Shown piece after piece: positions 1,635-37,649 of a stretch of 42,917 bases of DNA. The stretch lies in IMG/VR virus record IMGVR_UViG_2718218102_000002; one strand, given 5' to 3'. How positions within the stretch are numbered: position 1 is the first letter of the stretch; each line of letters starts with the position of its first letter. The stretch comes from a virus (taxonomy: Duplodnaviria > Heunggongvirae > Uroviricota > Caudoviricetes). The notes under the pieces are model-generated. The model was not told where the DNA came from, did not search any database, and was given only the letters and a program-made list of their open reading frames with translations. Position numbers and translations under genes: made by a program.

Positions 1635-2216
1635 TTACCCTATAGGTGCTACTGGCCACTCAATATCCGGTACTACTGATGTATCAACACGGTTCAGCAA
1701 CACCCGATACTTTTTCCAGGCTTCCAGCAACAAGGTTTCTTCCTCCGTTGCGATCTCCAGATCTACAGCATCCTGAAGCGGCGCTATATGCTCACTGGCT
1801 ACCTGCATCAGGCTGTTTTTTGTTTCTTCCGCCTCCCGGATCCGGAACAGTTTTTCTGCTTCCGTATCCTTCACCCAGGCTGTACCGTTCCACTTCTGAA
1901 ACTCCCCTTCCGGGGATAACCAGGTGACATTTTCCGGTAATGAGCCGAGTTCAGAAATAAATAACGCGTCGCCGGAAGCCACGTCATAGACCGTTTTTCC
2001 CCGATGGTCTTCAACGAGATGCCACGATGCCTCATCACTGTTGAAAACAGCCACGAAGCCAGCCGGAATATCTGGCGGTGCAATATCGGTACTGTTTGCT
2101 GGCAGACCTGTATGAGGCGGAATGTATGCGTCACCTTCACCAATAAATTCATTAGTTCCGGCCAGCAGATTATAAATTTTTATGGTCCGTGGTTGTTCAC
2201 TCATTCTGAATGCCAT
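1635..2216 (-). CDS. tfa: Tail fiber assembly protein Tfa (lambda Tfa-like)
   Basis: 193-aa ORF starting [20 protein letters not shown], directly downstream of stf with a 1-nt TAATG stop/start overlap. Confidence 0.9.
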
Positions 2217-5120: not shown

Positions 5121-5720
5121 TCAGAACTTATAACCGACACCCACGATGAAACCGTCAGTGCGCCAGTCACCACTGCCGGAACCTTCATAAGCAATATCAA
5201 TGGCCACGGATTCGGTCGGGTTAAACTGCACGCCAGCCCCCCACGCCAGAGACGTGTTGCTGTGGCGACCGTCATCACTTCCGGTCAGCACATCATGCGT
5301 TTTCCCCTTGTTGTCAGTTACGCGGAGATAATCCCCGGAAAAAGTCGACACACGGCTGTAAGCCACGCCCGCCATCGCATACGCACTGAACCATTCATTC
5401 ACGCGCACAGAGGGCCCCGCCATTACGCTGAACCAGCGGTTACGAACGGAATCTTCATGCCAGCGGGTATCGCTGTAACGGGTAAGCTGGCGATTCTTGT
5501 CTCCTGCATAGCTGAAAGACGTCACCATCCCCAGTGTGTCCGTAAACTCATAACGGTATTTCACGTTAATCCCGTTCAGATCATCGCTGCCGGGAACGTT
5601 CGTCGAGACATGAAGATACCCCGCGCTCAGCGTGGACTGATGTTCAGACGCCCATGCAGGCGTACCGGATACGGCCAGACAAATGGCTGCGGACAAAATG
5701 GCGGCATAAAGTTTACGCAT
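5121..5720 (-). CDS. lom: Outer membrane protein Lom (Ail/Lom family)
   Basis: 199 aa with signal peptide (…AVSGTPAWA) and C-terminal GYKF beta-barrel ending; sits between J and stf as in lambda. Confidence 0.9.
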
Positions 5721-5786: not shown

Positions 5787-9188
<3,402 letters not shown>

Positions 9189-25641: not shown

Positions 25642-25968
25642 TCAAGGACGTGACGGCGTAAAGATAAATTGTCTCTTCACTCCCTGACAGGGGCGATTCT
25701 TTTCAAATCGCCATTTCGCCATGGCCTTCACCACTTCATCACGAAACAAATTATGAGGCTCTGAGCGGAGAAAAACGATCCGTGTCACAGTCCCATCAGC
25801 ACCAATATCGAACTTAACCTCAACCAGCCCCTTGATATAATTTGCTGCAGCATATTCCGGATATCGTGGATACACCGTCACTAATTGCCGGGGCTCATCA
25901 GCTTTTTGCTGCGAGCATCCCACTGCCAGGACAGATAACAGAAAAAGTAGTAAAAGGCGTCTTTTCAT
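25642..25968 (-). CDS. Lipoprotein with TonB C-terminal-like domain (accessory gene)
   Basis: Start set at MKRRLLLLFLLSVLAVGCSQ (lipobox LAVGC), with an AGGA Shine-Dalgarno. The mature part resembles the TonB_C fold pattern (YPRYPEYAAANYIKGLVEVKFDIGADGTV…AMAKWRFE). Confidence 0.55.
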   Translation of the reverse strand: MKRRLLLLFLLSVLAVGCSQQKADEPRQLVTVYPRYPEYAAANYIKGLVEVKFDIGADGTVTRIVFLRSEPHNLFRDEVVKAMAKWRFEKNRPCQGVKRQFIFTPSRP

Positions 25969-26448
25969 TTTTATTCCTACGGGTCTTATTCTGACAATAT
26001 ATCCTGTGTTCCAGACTGCCACATCACCACATCCTGTGCCATTATCTGACTCACATTACATACATCGCATCGGGATACAGTAGTAGCACTTTCTGTAATA
26101 CAGCTTCCTGTTTCTTCCACCATCGCACCGGGATAAACCCGCGAATCATTAACGCGGTAAAAACCCGGTGTGCATCGTTTTTAATTATTCCCGCACACTC
26201 ACGCAGAAGGAATTCCCCGTCGGGCTACGGTCATGGTTAATGCGGGAATACGGCGACGATACAGCGCAGCTAAAAGGGTAATGGACGGATAGACCGGTTT
26301 ATTTCATTCCACAGGATTCTGAGTGTCCCCAACTTCCTCCAATAGTCTGAGCCCACCTGTGTAGTTTTAATTTTCATCAATCCATTTAACTATCGTTTAA
26401 TTGTTGTCACATAGGATTCTGCCGTTTTTAACAATGCAGGATAATAAG

Positions 26449-26742
26449 ATGAAAAAAATGTTGTTTTCTGCCGCTCTGGCAATGCTTATTACAGGATGTG
26501 CTCAACAGACGTTTACTGTTGGAAACAAACCTACAGCAGTAACACCAAAGGAAACCATCACCCATCATTTCTTCGTTTCGGGAATTGGGCAGAAGAAAAC
26601 TGTCGATGCAGCAAAAATTTGTGGTGGTGCAGAAAATGTTGTTAAAACAGAAACCCAGCAAACATTCGTAAATGGATTGCTCGGTTTTATTACTTTAGGC
26701 ATTTATACTCCGCTGGAAGCGCGTGTGTATTGCTCACAATAA
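26449..26742 (+). CDS. bor: Bor lipoprotein (serum resistance)
   Basis: 97 aa, starting MKKMLFSAALAMLITGCAQQ; opposite strand to the late genes, between Rz and cos as in lambda. Confidence 0.9.
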   Translation: MKKMLFSAALAMLITGCAQQTFTVGNKPTAVTPKETITHHFFVSGIGQKKTVDAAKICGGAENVVKTETQQTFVNGLLGFITLGIYTPLEARVYCSQ

Positions 26743-26773: not shown

Positions 26774-27235
26774 CTATCTGCACTGCTCATTAATATACTT
26801 CTGGGTTCCTTCCAGTTGTTTTTGCATAGTGATCAGCCTCTCTCTGAGGGTGAAATAATCCCGTTCAGCGGTGTCTGCCAGTCGGGGGGAGGCTGCATTA
26901 TCCACGCCGGAGGCGGTGGTGGCTTCACGCACTGACTGACAGACTGCTTTGATGTGCAACCGACGACGACCAGCGGCAACATCATCACGCAGAGCATCAT
27001 TTTCAGCTTTCGCATCAGCTAACTCCTTCGTGTATTTTGCATCGAGCGCAGCAACATCACGCTGACGCATCTGCATGTCAGTAATTGCCGCGTTCGCCAG
27101 CTTCAGTTCTCTGGCATTTTTGTCGCGCTGGGCTTTGTAGGTAATGGCGTTATTACGGTAATGATTAACAGCCCATGACAGGCAGACGATGATGCAGATA
27201 ACCAGAGCGGAGATAATCGCGGTTACTCTGTTCAT
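26774..27235 (-). CDS. Rz: Spanin inner-membrane subunit Rz
   Basis: 153 aa, starting [26 protein letters not shown]. Confidence 0.9.
26833..27015 (-). CDS. Rz1: Spanin outer-membrane lipoprotein Rz1, embedded in Rz in the +1 frame
   Basis: 60 aa with lipobox (VVVGC) and a proline run (PPPPP), lying wholly inside Rz. Confidence 0.85.
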
Positions 27236-27729
27236 TGCTGACCCCACAAACAGATTTCACGCTCAATCTCACGACGAGTCATGAGACCTTTCCATTGCTT
27301 ACCGCCAGCATATGTCCAGCGACGTAGCTGATCACATGAGCCTTTGATATCGCCCTGGTTTATTTTGCGAAGAAGCGTCGATGTTCTGAAATTACCAGCA
27401 CCCACGTTGTAAACGAATGAGTAAAGAGCGCCGCGCGTTGTTTCCGGTATATCGACTGTGATGTACGGGTTAATTTGTCTGGCGACAGTGGCAAGGTCTT
27501 TATTCAGGAGTGCTTTGCATTCTGCTTTGGTATACGTTTTACCGAGCATGATGTCTTTTCCTGTATGCCCGTGACATACAGTCCATACACCAACAATATC
27601 TTTGTATGGTATGTAGCTGACACCTTCCAGACCATCGTTACCACTTGGGCCAGTGATTAACACTGATGCTATAGCAATTGCTCCGCCACCAATAGCAGCA
27701 GCAACGGCTTTTCGTAATGATGGAGGCAT
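27232..27729 (-). CDS. R: SAR endolysin (T4-lysozyme fold, phage 21 R-like)
   Basis: Gly/Ala-rich signal-anchor-release N-terminus ([18 protein letters not shown]) followed by a lysozyme E…D…T catalytic pattern. Confidence 0.85.
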
Positions 27730-27944
27730 TATTCACCTCTCGCAGCCTTGCGCTTATCTTCTTTAATCTTGAAATAAAGGTTTGTCAGGTACGTCAGCAG
27801 GCCAAATACCAGGCTACCCAGCACACCTATTGCCGCCCACTGTGAGGGCGTGACTTTATCGAGCAACTGTAAAAACCAGTACCCGGCACTACCTGCTGAG
27901 GTACCATAGGCGACACCCGTTGTTAACTTATCCATGGATTTCAT
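27729..27944 (-). CDS. S: Pinholin (phage 21 S-like) with dual-start MKSM motif
   Basis: 71 aa with two TM segments; MKSMDK start allows the 71-aa antiholin and 68-aa holin forms. Confidence 0.85.
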
Positions 27945-28073: not shown

Positions 28074-28106
28074 AAAAAATGGAAAAACCCGCTCGACGGC
28101 GGGTTT
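28074..28106 (-). terminator. Putative intrinsic terminator upstream of the lysis cassette (tR'-like position)
   Basis: Minus-strand hairpin aaacccgc-cgtcga-gcgggttt followed by ttccatttttt, about 130 bp upstream of the S start. Confidence 0.45.
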
Positions 28107-28532
28107 AAGCTGTGTGACGAAGTAACCACTCTTAACAGCATAACCAATTTTTTACGTACGTAAACTACTAAATGATATTTGTGAGAATGCCACCGAGTGT
28201 TCAAAACACCACCACAAATGCATAAGAAAACTTCAACAAATAACCAGTTAATAATTTCCGATGTTATTTTTAGTTTGTTTAAATTAAGCTAAAGAATTAT
28301 AGAGCACTTATAAATAAGTGCCATTAATATAAATTAGCTAATAGATTTATTTTTGTTCAGACAAGAGCCATGAATAGGATTAGATAGAAAAGGTTCCGAT
28401 AAAAATAGAGATCTACTTCACAAATTAAATGAGAAACTAAAACTTACATCTTGAAATAATCACATTGATTAGATGAATATTTATCGCGCAGTGACATCAT
28501 TTTTTAATAATAGTTCAAAAAAAGGGCGTACA

Positions 28533-29615
28533 ATGAAAAAATTAACAGTGGCAATTTCTGCTGTAGCTGCATCAGTACTGATGGCGATGTCTGCTCAGGC
28601 AGCTGAAATTTATAATAAAGACAGTAACAAGCTGGATCTATACGGGAAAGTTAATGCCAAGCACTACTTCTCCTCTAATGATGCAGATGATGGTGATACT
28701 ACTTATGCCCGTCTTGGCTTCAAAGGTGAAACCCAAATCAACGATCAACTGACTGGTTTCGGTCAGTGGGAATATGAATTCAAAGGCAACCGTGCTGAAT
28801 CTCAAGGTTCTTCCAAAGACAAAACCCGTCTTGCATTTGCAGGCCTGAAATTTGGTGATTACGGCTCAATCGATTACGGCCGTAACTACGGTGTAGCATA
28901 CGACATCGGTGCGTGGACTGACGTTCTGCCAGAATTCGGTGGTGATACCTGGACCCAAACAGATGTGTTCATGACTGGTCGCACTACTGGTGTTGCAACT
29001 TATCGTAACAACGACTTCTTTGGTCTGGTCGATGGCCTGAACTTTGCTGCTCAGTATCAGGGTAAAAATGACCGCACTGACGTAACTGAAGCCAATGGTG
29101 ATGGTTTCGGTTTCTCCACTACTTATGAGTATGAAGGATTCGGCGTGGGTGCAACCTATGCTAAATCAGATCGCACTGACGGTCAGGTCGCCTATGGTAA
29201 GAGCAAATTCAATGCCTCCGGCAAAAATGCGGAAGTATGGGCTGCAGGCCTGAAATATGATGCGAACAATATCTATCTGGCTACCACATATTCTGAAACT
29301 CAGAATATGACCGTTTTTGGTAATAACCATATTGCAAACAAAGCACAAAACTTTGAAGCAGTAGCACAATATCAGTTTGACTTCGGTCTGCGTCCATCTG
29401 TTGCTTACCTTCAGTCAAAAGGTAAAGACCTTGGTGTTCATGGTGACCGAGACTTAGTCAAGTATGTCGATGTCGGTGCTACTTACTACTTTAATAAAAA
29501 CATGTCCACTTTTGTTGATTACAAAATCAACTTAATTGACGATAGTAAGTTTACCAAAACAGCTGGTATTGATACCGACGACATCGTCGCTGTAGGTCTG
29601 GTTTATCAGTTCTAA
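28533..29615 (+). CDS. Outer membrane porin, OmpC/OmpF/NmpC (Lc-like) family
   Basis: Start set at MKKLTVAIS with a cleavable signal peptide; classic porin N-terminus [16 protein letters not shown] and C-terminal VGLVYQF. Confidence 0.85.
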
Positions 29616-29632: not shown

Positions 29633-29668
29633 ATATGTTGCGGGAGGCTTTGCCTCCGCAACATATAA
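29633..29668 (+). terminator. Palindromic hairpin downstream of the porin gene
   Basis: atatgttgcgggaggc-ttt-gcctccgcaacatata; no clear U-tract. Confidence 0.4.
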
Positions 29669-29743: not shown

Positions 29744-29769
29744 CTTTATTTTGGGGGCGTTTCCACGCC
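29744..29769 (+). terminator. Putative intrinsic terminator
   Basis: ggggcgt-ttcc-acgcccc followed by atttttaa. Confidence 0.45.
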
Positions 29770-29803
29770 CCATTTTTAATAACTTTTAGTAAACAATTGC
29801 ATA

Positions 29804-30187
29804 TCAATTAGAATTATTAGCAACGATATCCATATCTAACCGGATATCTAATGCCATTAACATCCCTTCAATTATGCCCTCAGCCTTCTGTAACCTTTTC
29901 CCGATATAACCATCCGAGCAGCAATGCTTACTTGCCAGTGACATGAATGTCATACCACATACATAATAATCTACTAATAAATCGTGTAAATCGCTGTTGT
30001 TCTTTTTCAGACGGGCCATGCACCCGCAAATGATCATCGCGTCATCGTCACAACATTGCGGGCGAGATTTTACTTTTGAAGGAATTAATCCCTTAAAACC
30101 GGCGGCAATGGACGACCAGGTCACATCTTCATGATTATTAGCCGCCCACGCACCCCAACGCTCAAGAACCATCTGAATATCACGCAT
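29804..30187 (-). CDS. Late-gene antiterminator Q, DLP12 QuuD/phage 82-type
   Basis: Start set at [18 protein letters not shown], giving 127 aa. Cys-rich ([18 protein letters not shown]) and sits just upstream of the late region. Confidence 0.75.
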
Positions 30188-31944: not shown

Positions 31945-32322
31945 ATGACCAACAAAGAAAACAAAGATAAATATATTAACAAGTTCAAGAAAGAGCTTTC
32001 AAAATATATACAACCAACTGCTGGAGTGGACATTCAATTATTTAACTCTAAGGATGGTGGTGGTGTAATTAAAGCCACTTTGAATAGAAGTGGAAAAAGA
32101 AAATCATCTATTGCAGGTAATTTTACTAAATTAGGTGAGGCAATTACCTCGAGTGGGCAGAGGGTTTTTGGTGGTGATCTATCAAATGTAAATTTTTACG
32201 GAACAAATACGATTTTTGATGGAGATACAATATTTTTAATTAAATCACCTGATTCAGAGGAGTGGTCATCACAAAAAGCTTCCAAAGACGTAGAGGGAAT
32301 CGTATTTGGAGGGAAAAAATGA
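31945..32322 (+). CDS. Hypothetical soluble protein (AT-rich opposite-strand cassette, gene 1)
   Basis: 125 aa, Lys/Gly-rich, no predicted TM segment; very low GC compared with flanking phage genes. Confidence 0.5.
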   Translation: MTNKENKDKYINKFKKELSKYIQPTAGVDIQLFNSKDGGGVIKATLNRSGKRKSSIAGNFTKLGEAITSSGQRVFGGDLSNVNFYGTNTIFDGDTIFLIKSPDSEEWSSQKASKDVEGIVFGGKK

Positions 32323-32747
32323 TTAACATTACTACTAAGGATGGCACTCAAGTCAGTGGTGAAGTAAGAGATCTAGTAATTCTTCTTGAAACTGATGGAA
32401 AAACGGTGTCTGATTATTTGCAGCCAATCCCTCCCAAAAAAGATACACACTGGAGCATGATTTTCATTCCGGTAGCAATTTATATACTACTTAATCTTGT
32501 ATACATTATTGCTCACCCATTATTTCCTGAAAAATATCTAAAAACATCAACATCTATATTTCTATTCATTTCCTTCATATTAAGTGCAATAGTAGCATAT
32601 TTTGTTTTCCATAAGCATAAATCTGCCACTCTATCCATATGCAGCTTAGTGTTCTTAGTGTTAATTGTAGGTGCTAACGTAGGGTTTATCAGTTACAGCG
32701 ACCTAACACAAAAAGCGACGCAAAAATTAGATAGTTTGTCTAAATAA
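32319..32747 (+). CDS. Hypothetical membrane protein, about 3 TM helices (AT-rich cassette, gene 2)
   Basis: Start set at MINITTKDG, with GGAGGG Shine-Dalgarno and ATGA overlap with the gene 1 stop. Soluble N-terminal ~45 aa, then three hydrophobic segments. Confidence 0.5.
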   Translation: MINITTKDGTQVSGEVRDLVILLETDGKTVSDYLQPIPPKKDTHWSMIFIPVAIYILLNLVYIIAHPLFPEKYLKTSTSIFLFISFILSAIVAYFVFHKHKSATLSICSLVFLVLIVGANVGFISYSDLTQKATQKLDSLSK

Positions 32748-35349: not shown

Positions 35350-35459
35350 TATCAATTCCTATTGGTATTGCAATGAATAAATAATAGCAATGCGTATTAA
35401 TCCAAGCAATAGCAAAACGTGTTTTGACCATCAATACGCAAGCGTATAAATTAAAACTT
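35350..35459. promoter_or_regulatory. Right operator/promoter region (oR with divergent pR and pRM-like promoters)
   Basis: Three ATAGCAAT/ACCAATAG-type sites spaced about 22-23 bp apart (35359-35375, 35381-35398, 35404-35418). Plus strand: TTGACC (35424-35429) and TATAAA (35445-35450) just before the cI ATG. Minus strand: TTGCTT-17nt-TATTAT upstream of cro. Confidence 0.5.
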
Positions 35460-36152
35460 ATGAAAAAAGAAACTCTTGCTGATCGCTTAAACCTAGCGAT
35501 GGAACAATCTGGAATGTCTCAAGGCGCTCTTGCAAAGGCGTCTGGCGTAGCTCAACCCACAATCTGGAGACTGACAAGCGGCAACGCGCGCGGCTCAACA
35601 AAAATTGTTGAAATAGCTAATGCATTGGGTGTTCGAACAGAATGGCTCTCATCAGGCATAGGCCCGATGAGAAATGACGGTCAACAATCAGGGAAGCCTG
35701 CTGTCAGCTATTCCAAATACTTTAAAATTGACGTTCTTGATATAGAAGTGAGTGCCGGGCCGGGAGTCATCAACCGTGAGTTTGTAGAAGTTCTACGCTC
35801 GGTTGAGTACTCGTTTGACGATGCTCGTCACATGTTCGATGGTAGGAAGGCAGAAAATATCCGCATCATTAACGTACGCGGTGACAGCATGTCAGGAACG
35901 ATTGAACCTGGTGATCTTCTATTCGTTGATATCACGGTTAAATCTTTCGACGGTGATGGTATCTATGCGTTTCTGTACGACGACACAGCCCATGTAAAGC
36001 GCCTGCAAATGATGAAGGATAAGCTGCTGGTTATCTCTGATAACAAAAGCTACTCACCGTGGGACCCGATCGAGAAAGATGAGATGAACCGGGTATTTAT
36101 CTTCGGGAAAGTTATTGGGAGCATGCCGCAGACGTATAGGAAGCATGGATAG
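35460..36152 (+). CDS. cI: CI-type repressor (N-terminal HTH plus C-terminal S24 LexA-like autopeptidase)
   Basis: HTH motif QGALAKASGVAQPTIWRL; GDSM and a downstream Lys (HVKRL) typical of the S24 Ser-Lys dyad. The ATG at 35460 is preferred over the track TTG at 35424. Confidence 0.85.
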   Translation: MKKETLADRLNLAMEQSGMSQGALAKASGVAQPTIWRLTSGNARGSTKIVEIANALGVRTEWLSSGIGPMRNDGQQSGKPAVSYSKYFKIDVLDIEVSAGPGVINREFVEVLRSVEYSFDDARHMFDGRKAENIRIINVRGDSMSGTIEPGDLLFVDITVKSFDGDGIYAFLYDDTAHVKRLQMMKDKLLVISDNKSYSPWDPIEKDEMNRVFIFGKVIGSMPQTYRKHG

Positions 36153-36232
36153 TACCAATTAAAAATTATCAACCGGGCATTGTGCTCATTCAGTAAAACA
36201 ACTTAATTATTCATTTTAGAATGGAGAACTTA

Positions 36233-37294
36233 ATGGATACTTTAAAATATGAGAAATTCTCTGATTTTGATCACAATGACCCATTTTTTGACTCTTTAAA
36301 AAAAGATTATAAAGAGTTTCCTCTTTGGTTAGAAAAAAAAGCCAGAGAAGGAGAATCAGCTTATGTGCTCTATGATGACAAGCATAAAATCGAAGGTTTT
36401 ATGTATCTAAAAGAAAATGATGATGCAAATGACATTAATCCAGCGCTCCCACCAGGACGTCATCTAAAGATAGGAACATTCAAATTTGAATCTAAAGGCA
36501 CCCTTCGCGGACAACGATTTCTAAAAAAAGCGTTTGACCATGCATTTTCATCAAAATCTGATGATATTTATGTTACTGTTTTCGACAAACACGTCCATCT
36601 AATAAAACTTTTCCAAACGTACGGATTTTACATTCATGGTGAAAAAGAAACACATAACGGGAAAGAGTTTGTATATGCGAGGTCTTTGCATGAGCCTTAT
36701 GGTGATATTTTATTAGATTACCCTCGAATAATGACATCAAGGGCCAACAAATATTTACTGGCGATTTATCCCGAATATCACACTAGACTATTCCCTGATT
36801 CAAAACTTGTAAATGAATCACCAGATATTGTCAAAGATATATCCCATGCTAACAGCATTCATAAAATTTACATATGTGGAATGCGTTCTGTGATGGGAAT
36901 GAAAAGAGGAGATATCATTGTCATCTATAGAACCGGAGACAAAAAAGGGCCAGCTCGCTATCGTTCTGTAGCCAGTACATTATGTGTAGTTGAGAGCGTA
37001 AAAAATATTTCTGAATTTTTAAGCGAAGATAGTTTTGTAGACTATTGTATTCGTTTTAGCGTATTTTCTGAAGATGAACTCAGAAAAATCTATAAAGAAC
37101 GTCGATACCCTTTCATTATAAGATTCACATACAATCTGTCTTTGCCAAAGAGACCCAATCGTGCTATTTTAATAGATCATGTGGGGCTAAATGGTTCGCG
37201 TGCATTCCGATGGAGTCACTTTAAACTCACAAATGAGCAGTTCTTAAAGATCATCGAGTTAGGCAAGATAAATGAAAGTTTTATTATCCATTAA
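36233..37294 (+). CDS. Hypothetical two-domain protein: possible GNAT-like N-terminal half and ASCH/PUA-like C-terminal half
   Basis: 353 aa from the second ATG (GGAG Shine-Dalgarno). N-terminal segment LRGQRFLKKAF…IYVTVFD…LFQTYGFYIHG loosely resembles GNAT motifs A/B. Domain calls are by eye and tentative. Confidence 0.55.
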   Translation: MDTLKYEKFSDFDHNDPFFDSLKKDYKEFPLWLEKKAREGESAYVLYDDKHKIEGFMYLKENDDANDINPALPPGRHLKIGTFKFESKGTLRGQRFLKKAFDHAFSSKSDDIYVTVFDKHVHLIKLFQTYGFYIHGEKETHNGKEFVYARSLHEPYGDILLDYPRIMTSRANKYLLAIYPEYHTRLFPDSKLVNESPDIVKDISHANSIHKIYICGMRSVMGMKRGDIIVIYRTGDKKGPARYRSVASTLCVVESVKNISEFLSEDSFVDYCIRFSVFSEDELRKIYKERRYPFIIRFTYNLSLPKRPNRAILIDHVGLNGSRAFRWSHFKLTNEQFLKIIELGKINESFIIH

Positions 37295-37649
37295 GCCTGA
37301 GTTTGCAGAAAAAATATTGAACGGAACAAAGCGGTTCGAGTTTCGTAAAGGTATATTCAAAAATCCGCAAATTAGCACCGTTGTTATTTATGCCACGATG
37401 CCATTAGGTAAAGTTGTTGGTCAATTCCGTATTGAATCAATACTAAGTGACGAACCGGAATCTCTTTGGAAAAAGACGGAAAAGCACGCAGGTATTTCTA
37501 AGCAATTTTATGACTCATATTATTCAGGTAGAGAAAAGGCCTACGCAATAAAAATTGGTGAAGTGGAAAGATATAAAGAACCAATTCCTATCTCTGCTCT
37601 AGGTAGTAATATTAAGCCACCACAATCATATCTTTACCTACCTGCGTAA
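37272..37649 (+). CDS. ASCH-domain protein (PUA-like fold)
   Basis: 125 aa; N-terminus MKVLLSIKPEFAEKILNGTKRFEFRK is typical of ASCH proteins. Overlaps the upstream gene by 23 nt. Confidence 0.65.
   Translation: MKVLLSIKPEFAEKILNGTKRFEFRKGIFKNPQISTVVIYATMPLGKVVGQFRIESILSDEPESLWKKTEKHAGISKQFYDSYYSGREKAYAIKIGEVERYKEPIPISALGSNIKPPQSYLYLPA

Follow-up and report, generated by a model that had tools for sequence, protein, structure and literature searches.

The window, that is, the whole 42,917-nt stretch of DNA analysed here, is a lambdoid prophage. In its structural genes it shows ~97% identity to phage 21, and in its right half 99.5% identity to the prophage that adjoins icd in E. coli 536; it lacks the IS100 that breaks the integrase of the 536 prophage. 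The genes and features at and around its porin gene are as follows (window coordinates; basis of each call in brackets):

26449-26742, + strand: Bor/Iss lipoprotein gene (ORFs, Pfam)
26774-27944, - strand: lysis cassette (ORFs, Pfam), with the next four genes
26774-27247, - strand: Rz (ORFs, Pfam)
26833-27015, - strand: Rz1 (ORFs, Pfam)
27232-27729, - strand: SAR-type endolysin (lysozyme) with a Gly/Ala-rich N-terminal anchor (ORFs, Pfam)
27729-27944, - strand: S21-type pinholin (P21-type holin), 71 aa, dual Met1/Met4 start (PF04971)
28080-28106, - strand: candidate tR' hairpin and U-run, +25 to +51 of the predicted late transcript (folding)
28130-28164, - strand: predicted late promoter pR' (homology to Stx2 phage II)
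28168-29827, strand not applicable: porin cassette, 1.66 kb (stop of Q homology at codon 120, DNA alignment to Stx2 phage II, composition)
28407-28480, + strand: candidate porin promoter region (CRP-like site and weak sigma-70-like pair; hexamers inferred)
28533-29615, + strand: porin gene of the NmpC/Lc/OmpD type, 360 aa (ORF listing, Pfam, NCBIfam, alignments)
29633-29666, strand not applicable: 15-bp hairpin, 18 nt past the porin stop codon (folding: dG -22.8 kcal/mol, z -3.7)
29754-29778, + strand: intrinsic-terminator-like hairpin, GGGGCG..CGCCCC followed by ATTTTT (scan, folding)
29804-30187, - strand: Q antiterminator of the QuuD type, 127 aa (PF06530, E 7.7e-54)

The product of 28533-29615 is a general bacterial porin of the OmpC/OmpF/PhoE family, a membership that points to general diffusion across the outer membrane as its biochemical role. 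The + strand frame is open from 28473 to 29615; its start was taken as the ATG at 28533, as in annotated homologues (MKKLTVAIS...), with a ribosome-binding site (AGGG) 6 nt upstream, and its stop codon occupies 29613-29615, with zero frameshifts and zero internal stops in the ORF listing. Pfam Porin_1 (PF00267) covers the protein end to end (profile positions 1-337 of 337; E 1.9e-151; 504.7 bits vs. a cut-off of 23.7). At the level of NCBIfam, the porin passed the cut-off of the OmpC subfamily (521 bits vs. 484) and scored below the equivalog cut-offs of both PhoE and OmpF. From residue 24 to the C-terminal YQF it aligned with the solved chains of OmpC, OmpK36, PhoE and OmpF (E ~1e-137 to 1e-111). 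Because these solved mature chains start aligning at residue 24, cleavage was placed after AQA23, giving a signal peptide of residues 1-23 (28533-28601) and a mature N-terminus of AEIYNK. Moreover, the PEFGG motif of the constriction loop L3 (VLPEFGGD, residues 131-138) and the aromatic C-terminus (YQF, the assembly signal) are both present. The precursor would be exported and cleaved after residue 23, and the mature protein is predicted, from its alignment to solved porins, to insert as a 16-strand trimeric barrel in the manner of OmpC, OmpF and PhoE. The sequence-only reading had described a complete classical porin gene with a signal peptide, antisense between the Q antiterminator and the pinholin gene; ORFs and Pfam matched this exactly in coordinates, strand and description, and the reading frame, for which frameshifts or stops had been considered, is intact.

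The same reading had likened the locus to DLP12 nmpC and phage PA-2 lc, and alignment to NmpC, Lc and OmpC bore the resemblance out: protein identity was 91% in each of the first two cases (331/365 to NmpC and 331/365 to Lc), solved OmpC aligned from residue 24 to the end, the gene order matched, and the flanks were 93-96% identical. Four comparisons place the porin among its relatives: i) Lc (protein 2) of the lambdoid phage PA-2 (GenBank J02580) is 365 aa long vs. 360 aa for the window porin, carries an annotated 23-aa signal peptide identical to that of the window porin, and is encoded at the corresponding place and on the corresponding strand, with ORF1 (Q) on one side and the lysis genes on the other, and with a Q-porin spacer 93% identical to that of the window; ii) NmpC of the K-12 prophage DLP12 (qsr'), whose protein was rebuilt from its two IS5-split fragments before alignment, lies in the gene order quuD-nmpC-essD-rrrD-rzpD-borD, which is that of the window, within a module of 91-96% DNA identity, but in the K-12 copy an IS5 insertion follows codon 346, and the prophage around it, at argU, is decayed, whereas the window copy is intact and sits in an apparently complete lambdoid prophage; iii) the porin-holin spacer shows 95% identity among the window, PA-2 and K-12; iv) chromosomal OmpC, OmpF and PhoE and Salmonella OmpD belong to one Pfam/NCBIfam family with the window porin, with full-length alignment to the solved trimers, but the window porin, unlike chromosomal OmpC, is phage-borne and not at the ompC locus, and it lacks the long L4 insertion of OmpC (an 11-residue gap). 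Thus by family profile, signal peptide, motifs, identity and synteny the window porin is a member of the NmpC/Lc group of prophage porins.

Copies of this locus are widespread. The 3.9 kb from Bor to Q are 100% identical to the E. coli 536 prophage and to many other strains, and the RefSeq names in the matching region are iss, rzpD, rrrD, essD, “porin OmpC” and quuD. The isolated temperate phages ev017, 2G7b, ev207, Perceval and the PhiR series encode a 100% identical porin together with an identical Q-porin spacer; no difference from the window was found at the porin locus of these phages (Perceval being that of LF82), while elsewhere, for example in the J tips, they do differ. In a survey of complete E. 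coli genomes, close copies of the porin gene (at least 80% of its length) were found in 2,502 of 5,426, and 1,224 records were at least 99% identical. Since identical annotated copies exist, in hundreds of genomes and several phage isolates, the porin gene is already known, and its locus in the window is an ordinary one, of the type carried antisense between Q and the lysis genes by many E. coli lambda-like prophages.

Differences between the window porin and its closest relatives are clustered and unevenly spread along the protein. Residues 1-148 are those of K-12 NmpC with no differences, and relative to Lc the substitutions and two small deletions are grouped at residues 182-187, 218-231, 263-267, 303-306 and 335-344; the clusters at 182-187 and 218-231 fall on indel sites of the OmpC alignment. 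By the structures of OmpC and OmpF, we take these clusters to be the surface loops L4 to L8. Such indel-prone segments form surface loops in OmpC and OmpF, and a clustering there of the allele differences from NmpC and Lc would agree with selection acting on the cell surface; it speaks for superinfection exclusion as the selected role of the porin, by which it would displace the OmpC/OmpF receptor of the carrying phage rather than bring a general permeability or stress benefit. The sequence-only reading had proposed that a prophage porin can replace host porins and alter receptor availability for other phages. The picture from PA-2 points the same way: in the work of Schnaitman and colleagues in the 1970s-80s, PA-2 reportedly adsorbs to OmpC, and its lysogens are said to make protein 2 (Lc) and to have reduced OmpC and OmpF. 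Exclusion nevertheless seems to us possible but rather unlikely as the selected role: the porin-bearing phages have several unrelated J tips, 55-100% identical to that of the window, whose J is 55% identical to lambda J, and since several J tail tips travel with the porin, it is not tied to one receptor specificity; moreover, the other phenotypes reported are thermal regulation and heat resistance (PMC12890032). Over its C-terminal 200 aa (5790-6389, - strand), the window J tail tip shares 55% identity with lambda J, 83% with phage 21 and ~96% with the long-tailed Stx1/Stx2 phages of O157, values from which no receptor could be assigned.

Upstream of the porin lies an AT-rich control region (30-37% GC in the composition profile), which is homologous to the K-12 region that holds PnmpC. 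It contains a CRP-like site, AGAGATCTACTTCACA, at 28407-28422, where the PA-2 record J02580 annotates a CRP site, and a weak sigma-70-like pair, predicted from inferred hexamers: TTGAAA (28451-28456), 18 nt, and GAATAT (28475-28480). In K-12 the nmpC promoter lies at most 199 bp upstream of the ATG, is active, and is the main driver of the IS5 transposase (PMC11677980). In lysogens of the LF82 prophage Perceval, the identical NmpC gene was expressed 10-fold above the local background (PMC9928086), and in CFT073 two nmpC genes gave more mRNA and more protein at 37 C (PMC12890032). The porin would be transcribed from its own promoter in this AT-rich upstream spacer, on the strand opposite the phage late genes, and, judging by the identical Perceval gene, would be expressed in the lysogen as a lysogenic-conversion (“moron”) gene.

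A silent gene is the other way to read this locus: a relic like K-12 nmpC::IS5, passively carried with the Q-S-R module and yielding no protein. Both K-12 and phage 434B have an IS5-broken gene without a growth defect (PMC11677980), and the candidate porin promoter hexamers are weak. Four lines of evidence make this reading very improbable, however: i) the window ORF is intact and is identical across many genomes and free phages; ii) transcription of the identical Perceval gene is reported from LF82 lysogens (PMC9928086); iii) NmpC proteins were detected in CFT073 (PMC12890032); iv) the K-12 promoter is active enough to drive the IS5 transposase (PMC11677980). A lack of expression in lysogens, which the sequence-only reading had named as what would count against its view of the porin, was not what these reports found, given the Perceval transcription and the CFT073 mRNA and protein.

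On the far side of the porin, the window Q has a distant match to the solved Q21 (E 4e-8) and shares 81% identity with the Q of Stx2 phage II (hereafter Stx2 II; Q933 type), over residues 1-120 only. The same limit divides the phage collection: 35 porin-bearing phages match the window Q over all 127 residues (96-100%), whereas in ~300 porin-less phages, 933W and numerous Stx1 and Stx2 phages among them, the match (80-87%) is confined to residues 1-120. At the DNA level, Stx2 II aligns with the window Q up to ...ATGGAT (codon 120, window 29828) and then departs, to re-align at window 28167, 1.66 kb further on along the late strand, as TAGTTTACGtaCGTAAAAA; in Stx2 II these bases are the last codons and the stop codon of Q. 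The boundaries of the cassette relative to Stx2 II are thus 29827/29828 and 28167/28168. Within these 1.66 kb lie a new 7-codon Q tail, terminators, the porin and its AT-rich control region, and the 215-nt Q-porin spacer is confined to porin-bearing phages (36/36 records). As read from these alignments, the cassette appears to have displaced the greater part of the 3' end in a Q gene of the Q933 type: it would have replaced the last ~24 codons of such a gene and given Q a new 7-codon tail. A core late promoter of ~35 bp would be all that remained after the insertion; it lies just before the holin, and its -35 falls within what would have been the final codons of the ancestral Q. What is new here is modest, namely these breakpoints, by which the cassette would begin after codon 120 of Q and stop short of the core late promoter.

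The predicted pR' consists of a -35 TTTACG (28164-28159), a 16-nt spacer and a -10 TATGCT (28142-28137), with a predicted start at A 28130. Its hexamers match the consensus at 8/12 positions, below the detection of the consensus promoter scan; this element and a bulged hairpin discussed below, both missed by the consensus promoter/terminator scan, were read and folded by hand. The window, Stx2 II and SfII share the same arrangement (TTTACG, 16 nt, TAT(C/G)(A/C)T, then the motif AAGAGTGGTTAC, then a GC hairpin with a T-run), the 12-mer AAGAGTGGTTAC occurs a single time in the window, and no base of the pR' segment differs among the window, PA-2 and K-12, in contrast to its variable surroundings. 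In SfII, too, the pR'-like element adjoins the holin, with other antisense genes between the element and Q. For the Stx promoter, Sy et al. (PMC7547250) used dRNA-seq to locate the primary start and Term-seq to locate the 3' end, 258 nt downstream, and they mapped an RNase E cut GU|AUU to +173. With a start 7 nt after TATCAT in Stx2 II (position 1547 of the record used here, L004), the terminator has its final T at 1290, and the U in GU|AUU is at 1375, which gives 258 nt and +173 exactly. Because this implied start reproduces both published distances, TTTACG-16-TATCAT of Stx2 II can be identified as the true Stx pR'. Another pair, the “putative -35/-10” of the AP005154 record, was rejected, since it disagrees with the same dRNA-seq and Term-seq distances, which TTTACG-16-TATCAT fits.

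Two other elements near the late promoter were noted. A perfect 8+8 palindrome, GCACTTAT-AA-ATAAGTGC, lies at 28296-28324 in the porin-holin spacer and overlaps a - strand pair, ATGGCA-17-TATAAT (10/12 matches); neither the palindrome nor the ATGGCA -35 is conserved in PA-2 or K-12. The pair itself (28324-28296) was considered as pR' and dropped, its -35 being unconserved in PA-2 and K-12 and its site lying upstream of the Q relic. At 28110-28130, over +1 to +20 of the predicted pR' transcript, lies a CRP-like half-site, TGTGAcgaagtAACCA, for which the PA-2 record has a CRP-site annotation.

Downstream of pR' the candidate tR' (stem 28106-28085) is the sole terminator-like element before the holin, whose ATG lies 135 nt beyond its T-run. 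Stx phages, arranged as Q933-pR'-tR'(StxS)-stx, show 78% homology to the window in the core pR', in the initial ~50 leader nucleotides and in the first hairpin. They carry the stx cargo downstream of pR', on the same strand and Q-dependent, whereas in the window the cargo is upstream of pR' and on the opposite strand. Neither the StxS-forming 3' portion of the Stx leader nor the second terminator of the Stx phages is present in the window: a second, Stx-type tR' was sought in the window with none found, and no other was found before the holin. In Stx phages the homologous hairpin passes RNA polymerase on to the mapped 3' end at +258. Since this counterpart is leaky and the window has no second terminator, the efficiency of the 28106-28080 hairpin as tR' is uncertain: either it stops polymerase more efficiently in the window than in Stx phages, or some transcription from pR' enters the lysis genes. 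For DLP12, leaky lysis-gene expression is on record, and a passage of PMC7918800 cites work that places a Q-dependent promoter region of the DLP12 lysis operon upstream of essD.

Between Q and the porin, two hairpins bear on the question of whether transcription crosses the porin. The 15-bp hairpin at 29633-29666, which none of 200 shuffles folded as well as, contains a one-base bulge, owing to which the terminator scanner missed it. On the - strand CTTTTT (29632-29627) comes next, with no T-run on the + strand, and the element at 29666-29627 looks like a terminator for transcription arriving from Q. The + strand hairpin at 29754-29778 is likely, as judged from its sequence, to be the end of the porin mRNA. 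Consensus scanning and hand reading found no promoter-like site with at least 9/12 matches on the - strand between Q and the porin. In K-12, an extra terminator inserted between nmpC and quuD left IS5 transposition unchanged, and a promoter inserted there increased it (PMC11677980); this fits little native transcription from the Q side and is compatible with a late promoter on either side of the porin.

A late promoter directly after Q would reverse this picture. With pR' at 29803-29700 on the - strand and the hairpin and T-run at 29666-29627 as tR', Q-modified polymerase would run antisense through the porin and its promoter to the holin. The - strand hairpin was considered as tR' and is kept in that role only within this alternative. 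Several features are consistent with a promoter next to Q: i) Q and its promoter are adjacent in lambda, Stx phages and Lambda_ev066; ii) a strong - strand terminator-like hairpin lies ~140 nt past the Q stop; iii) two weak pairs, TGGAAA-18-TAATAT and GTAATA-16-TATAGT, each 8/12, fall within 140 nt of Q; iv) Lambda_ev066, whose Q is 87% identical, has a promoter and a terminator directly after Q and an antisense lipocalin gene downstream. The Lambda_ev066 layout means that cargo inside the late unit also exists, so both layouts occur in nature. On the other hand, the 215-nt spacer is unlike any pR' of porin-less phages and was found only together with the porin; the homologue of the mapped pR' of the closest Q relatives adjoins the holin and is perfectly conserved among the window, PA-2 and K-12; and the conserved initial-transcribed motif AAGAGTGGTTAC occurs at that one place only. 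A pR' next to Q is in our judgement unlikely here.

The preferred reading is instead a moron porin cassette, with a candidate promoter of its own and terminator-like hairpins on either side, between Q and pR' and outside the Q-dependent late transcript, to which we would assign a probability of roughly 0.8 on the basis of the sequence comparisons. The order on the late strand would be Q, the + strand porin terminator, the - strand hairpin, the antisense porin, its control region, pR', the leader hairpin and S-R-Rz. Q would act in trans on pR' 1.66 kb away, and the porin would be shielded from transcription leaving Q by the strong - strand terminator, whose function is predicted. The sequence-only reading had asked where the late promoter sits relative to the porin and had proposed a check for antisense late read-through across it. 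By homology to the mapped Stx pR', the promoter is most likely downstream of the porin, beside the holin; as the porin lies upstream of this pR' it would be outside the Q-dependent transcript, so that such Q-dependent read-through is not expected. Phage 434B is annotated with a DLP12-like Q-nmpC::IS5-S region replacing 434 DNA; we read 434B as a recombinant with DLP12, which would make the module a working late-control unit.

Beyond the porin itself, the gap between a Q933-type Q and its late promoter would probably be a recurrent landing site for antisense cargo, the porin being one that was spliced into the 3' end of Q, insulated and expressed in the lysogen, with Q working over 1.66 kb. SfII appears by sequence to be a case of a second, unrelated cargo in the slot that the porin cassette fills here: SfII_49 and SfII_50 (the latter without a Pfam family) lie antisense between Q and the pR'-like element (1772-3214 of L003). 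Different antisense cargo was seen at other sites near Q as well. Lambda_ev066 carries a Blc lipocalin gene antisense after pR'/tR' (3035-3559 of L007), and phage 434B a gene for the lipid A deacylase LpxR upstream of Q (4137-5096 of L005).

NmpC/Lc-type prophage porins change the outer-membrane make-up in roughly half of sequenced E. coli, and such porins have been associated with the adsorption of phages, with resistance to heat and, in uropathogens, with expression that depends on temperature. It follows that an intact, expressed copy matters for strain phenotype, though it is not new. The added value of the present analysis is structural: the cassette would lie upstream of the late promoter and not inside the late operon, whereas one would naturally expect lytic induction to bring antisense transcription over the porin, an expectation that this placement would correct. 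The breakpoints, in turn, define how the cassette would have entered the Q gene.

Several other features of the prophage were recorded. Directly after the cI-like repressor gene (35424-36152), two overlapping genes at 36221-37649 (+ strand) match the PADLOC candidate defence pair PDC-M11A/PDC-M11B (E 2e-133 and 7e-52), the second with an ASCH domain. Antisense in the nin region, two low-GC (~34%) ORFs of 125 and 142 aa at 31945-32747 (+ strand) are hypothetical in E. coli 536, and no Pfam or PADLOC family was found for them. In an Rfam scan of the whole window the sole match was IS009 at 1675-1873 (- strand; 221 bits, full length), inside the tail-fibre-assembly ORF at 1635-2216 (Caudo_TAP), with nothing at the porin locus or the late leader. 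Besides Bor/Iss (26449-26742), further envelope-related cargo comprises a SitD-like ABC-3 permease at the window edge (36-854, + strand), Lom/Ail (5121-5720, - strand) and a TonB C-terminal fragment (25642-26022, - strand); in the LF82 Perceval prophage, the TonB fragment and sitABCD are reported to be expressed in the lysogen.
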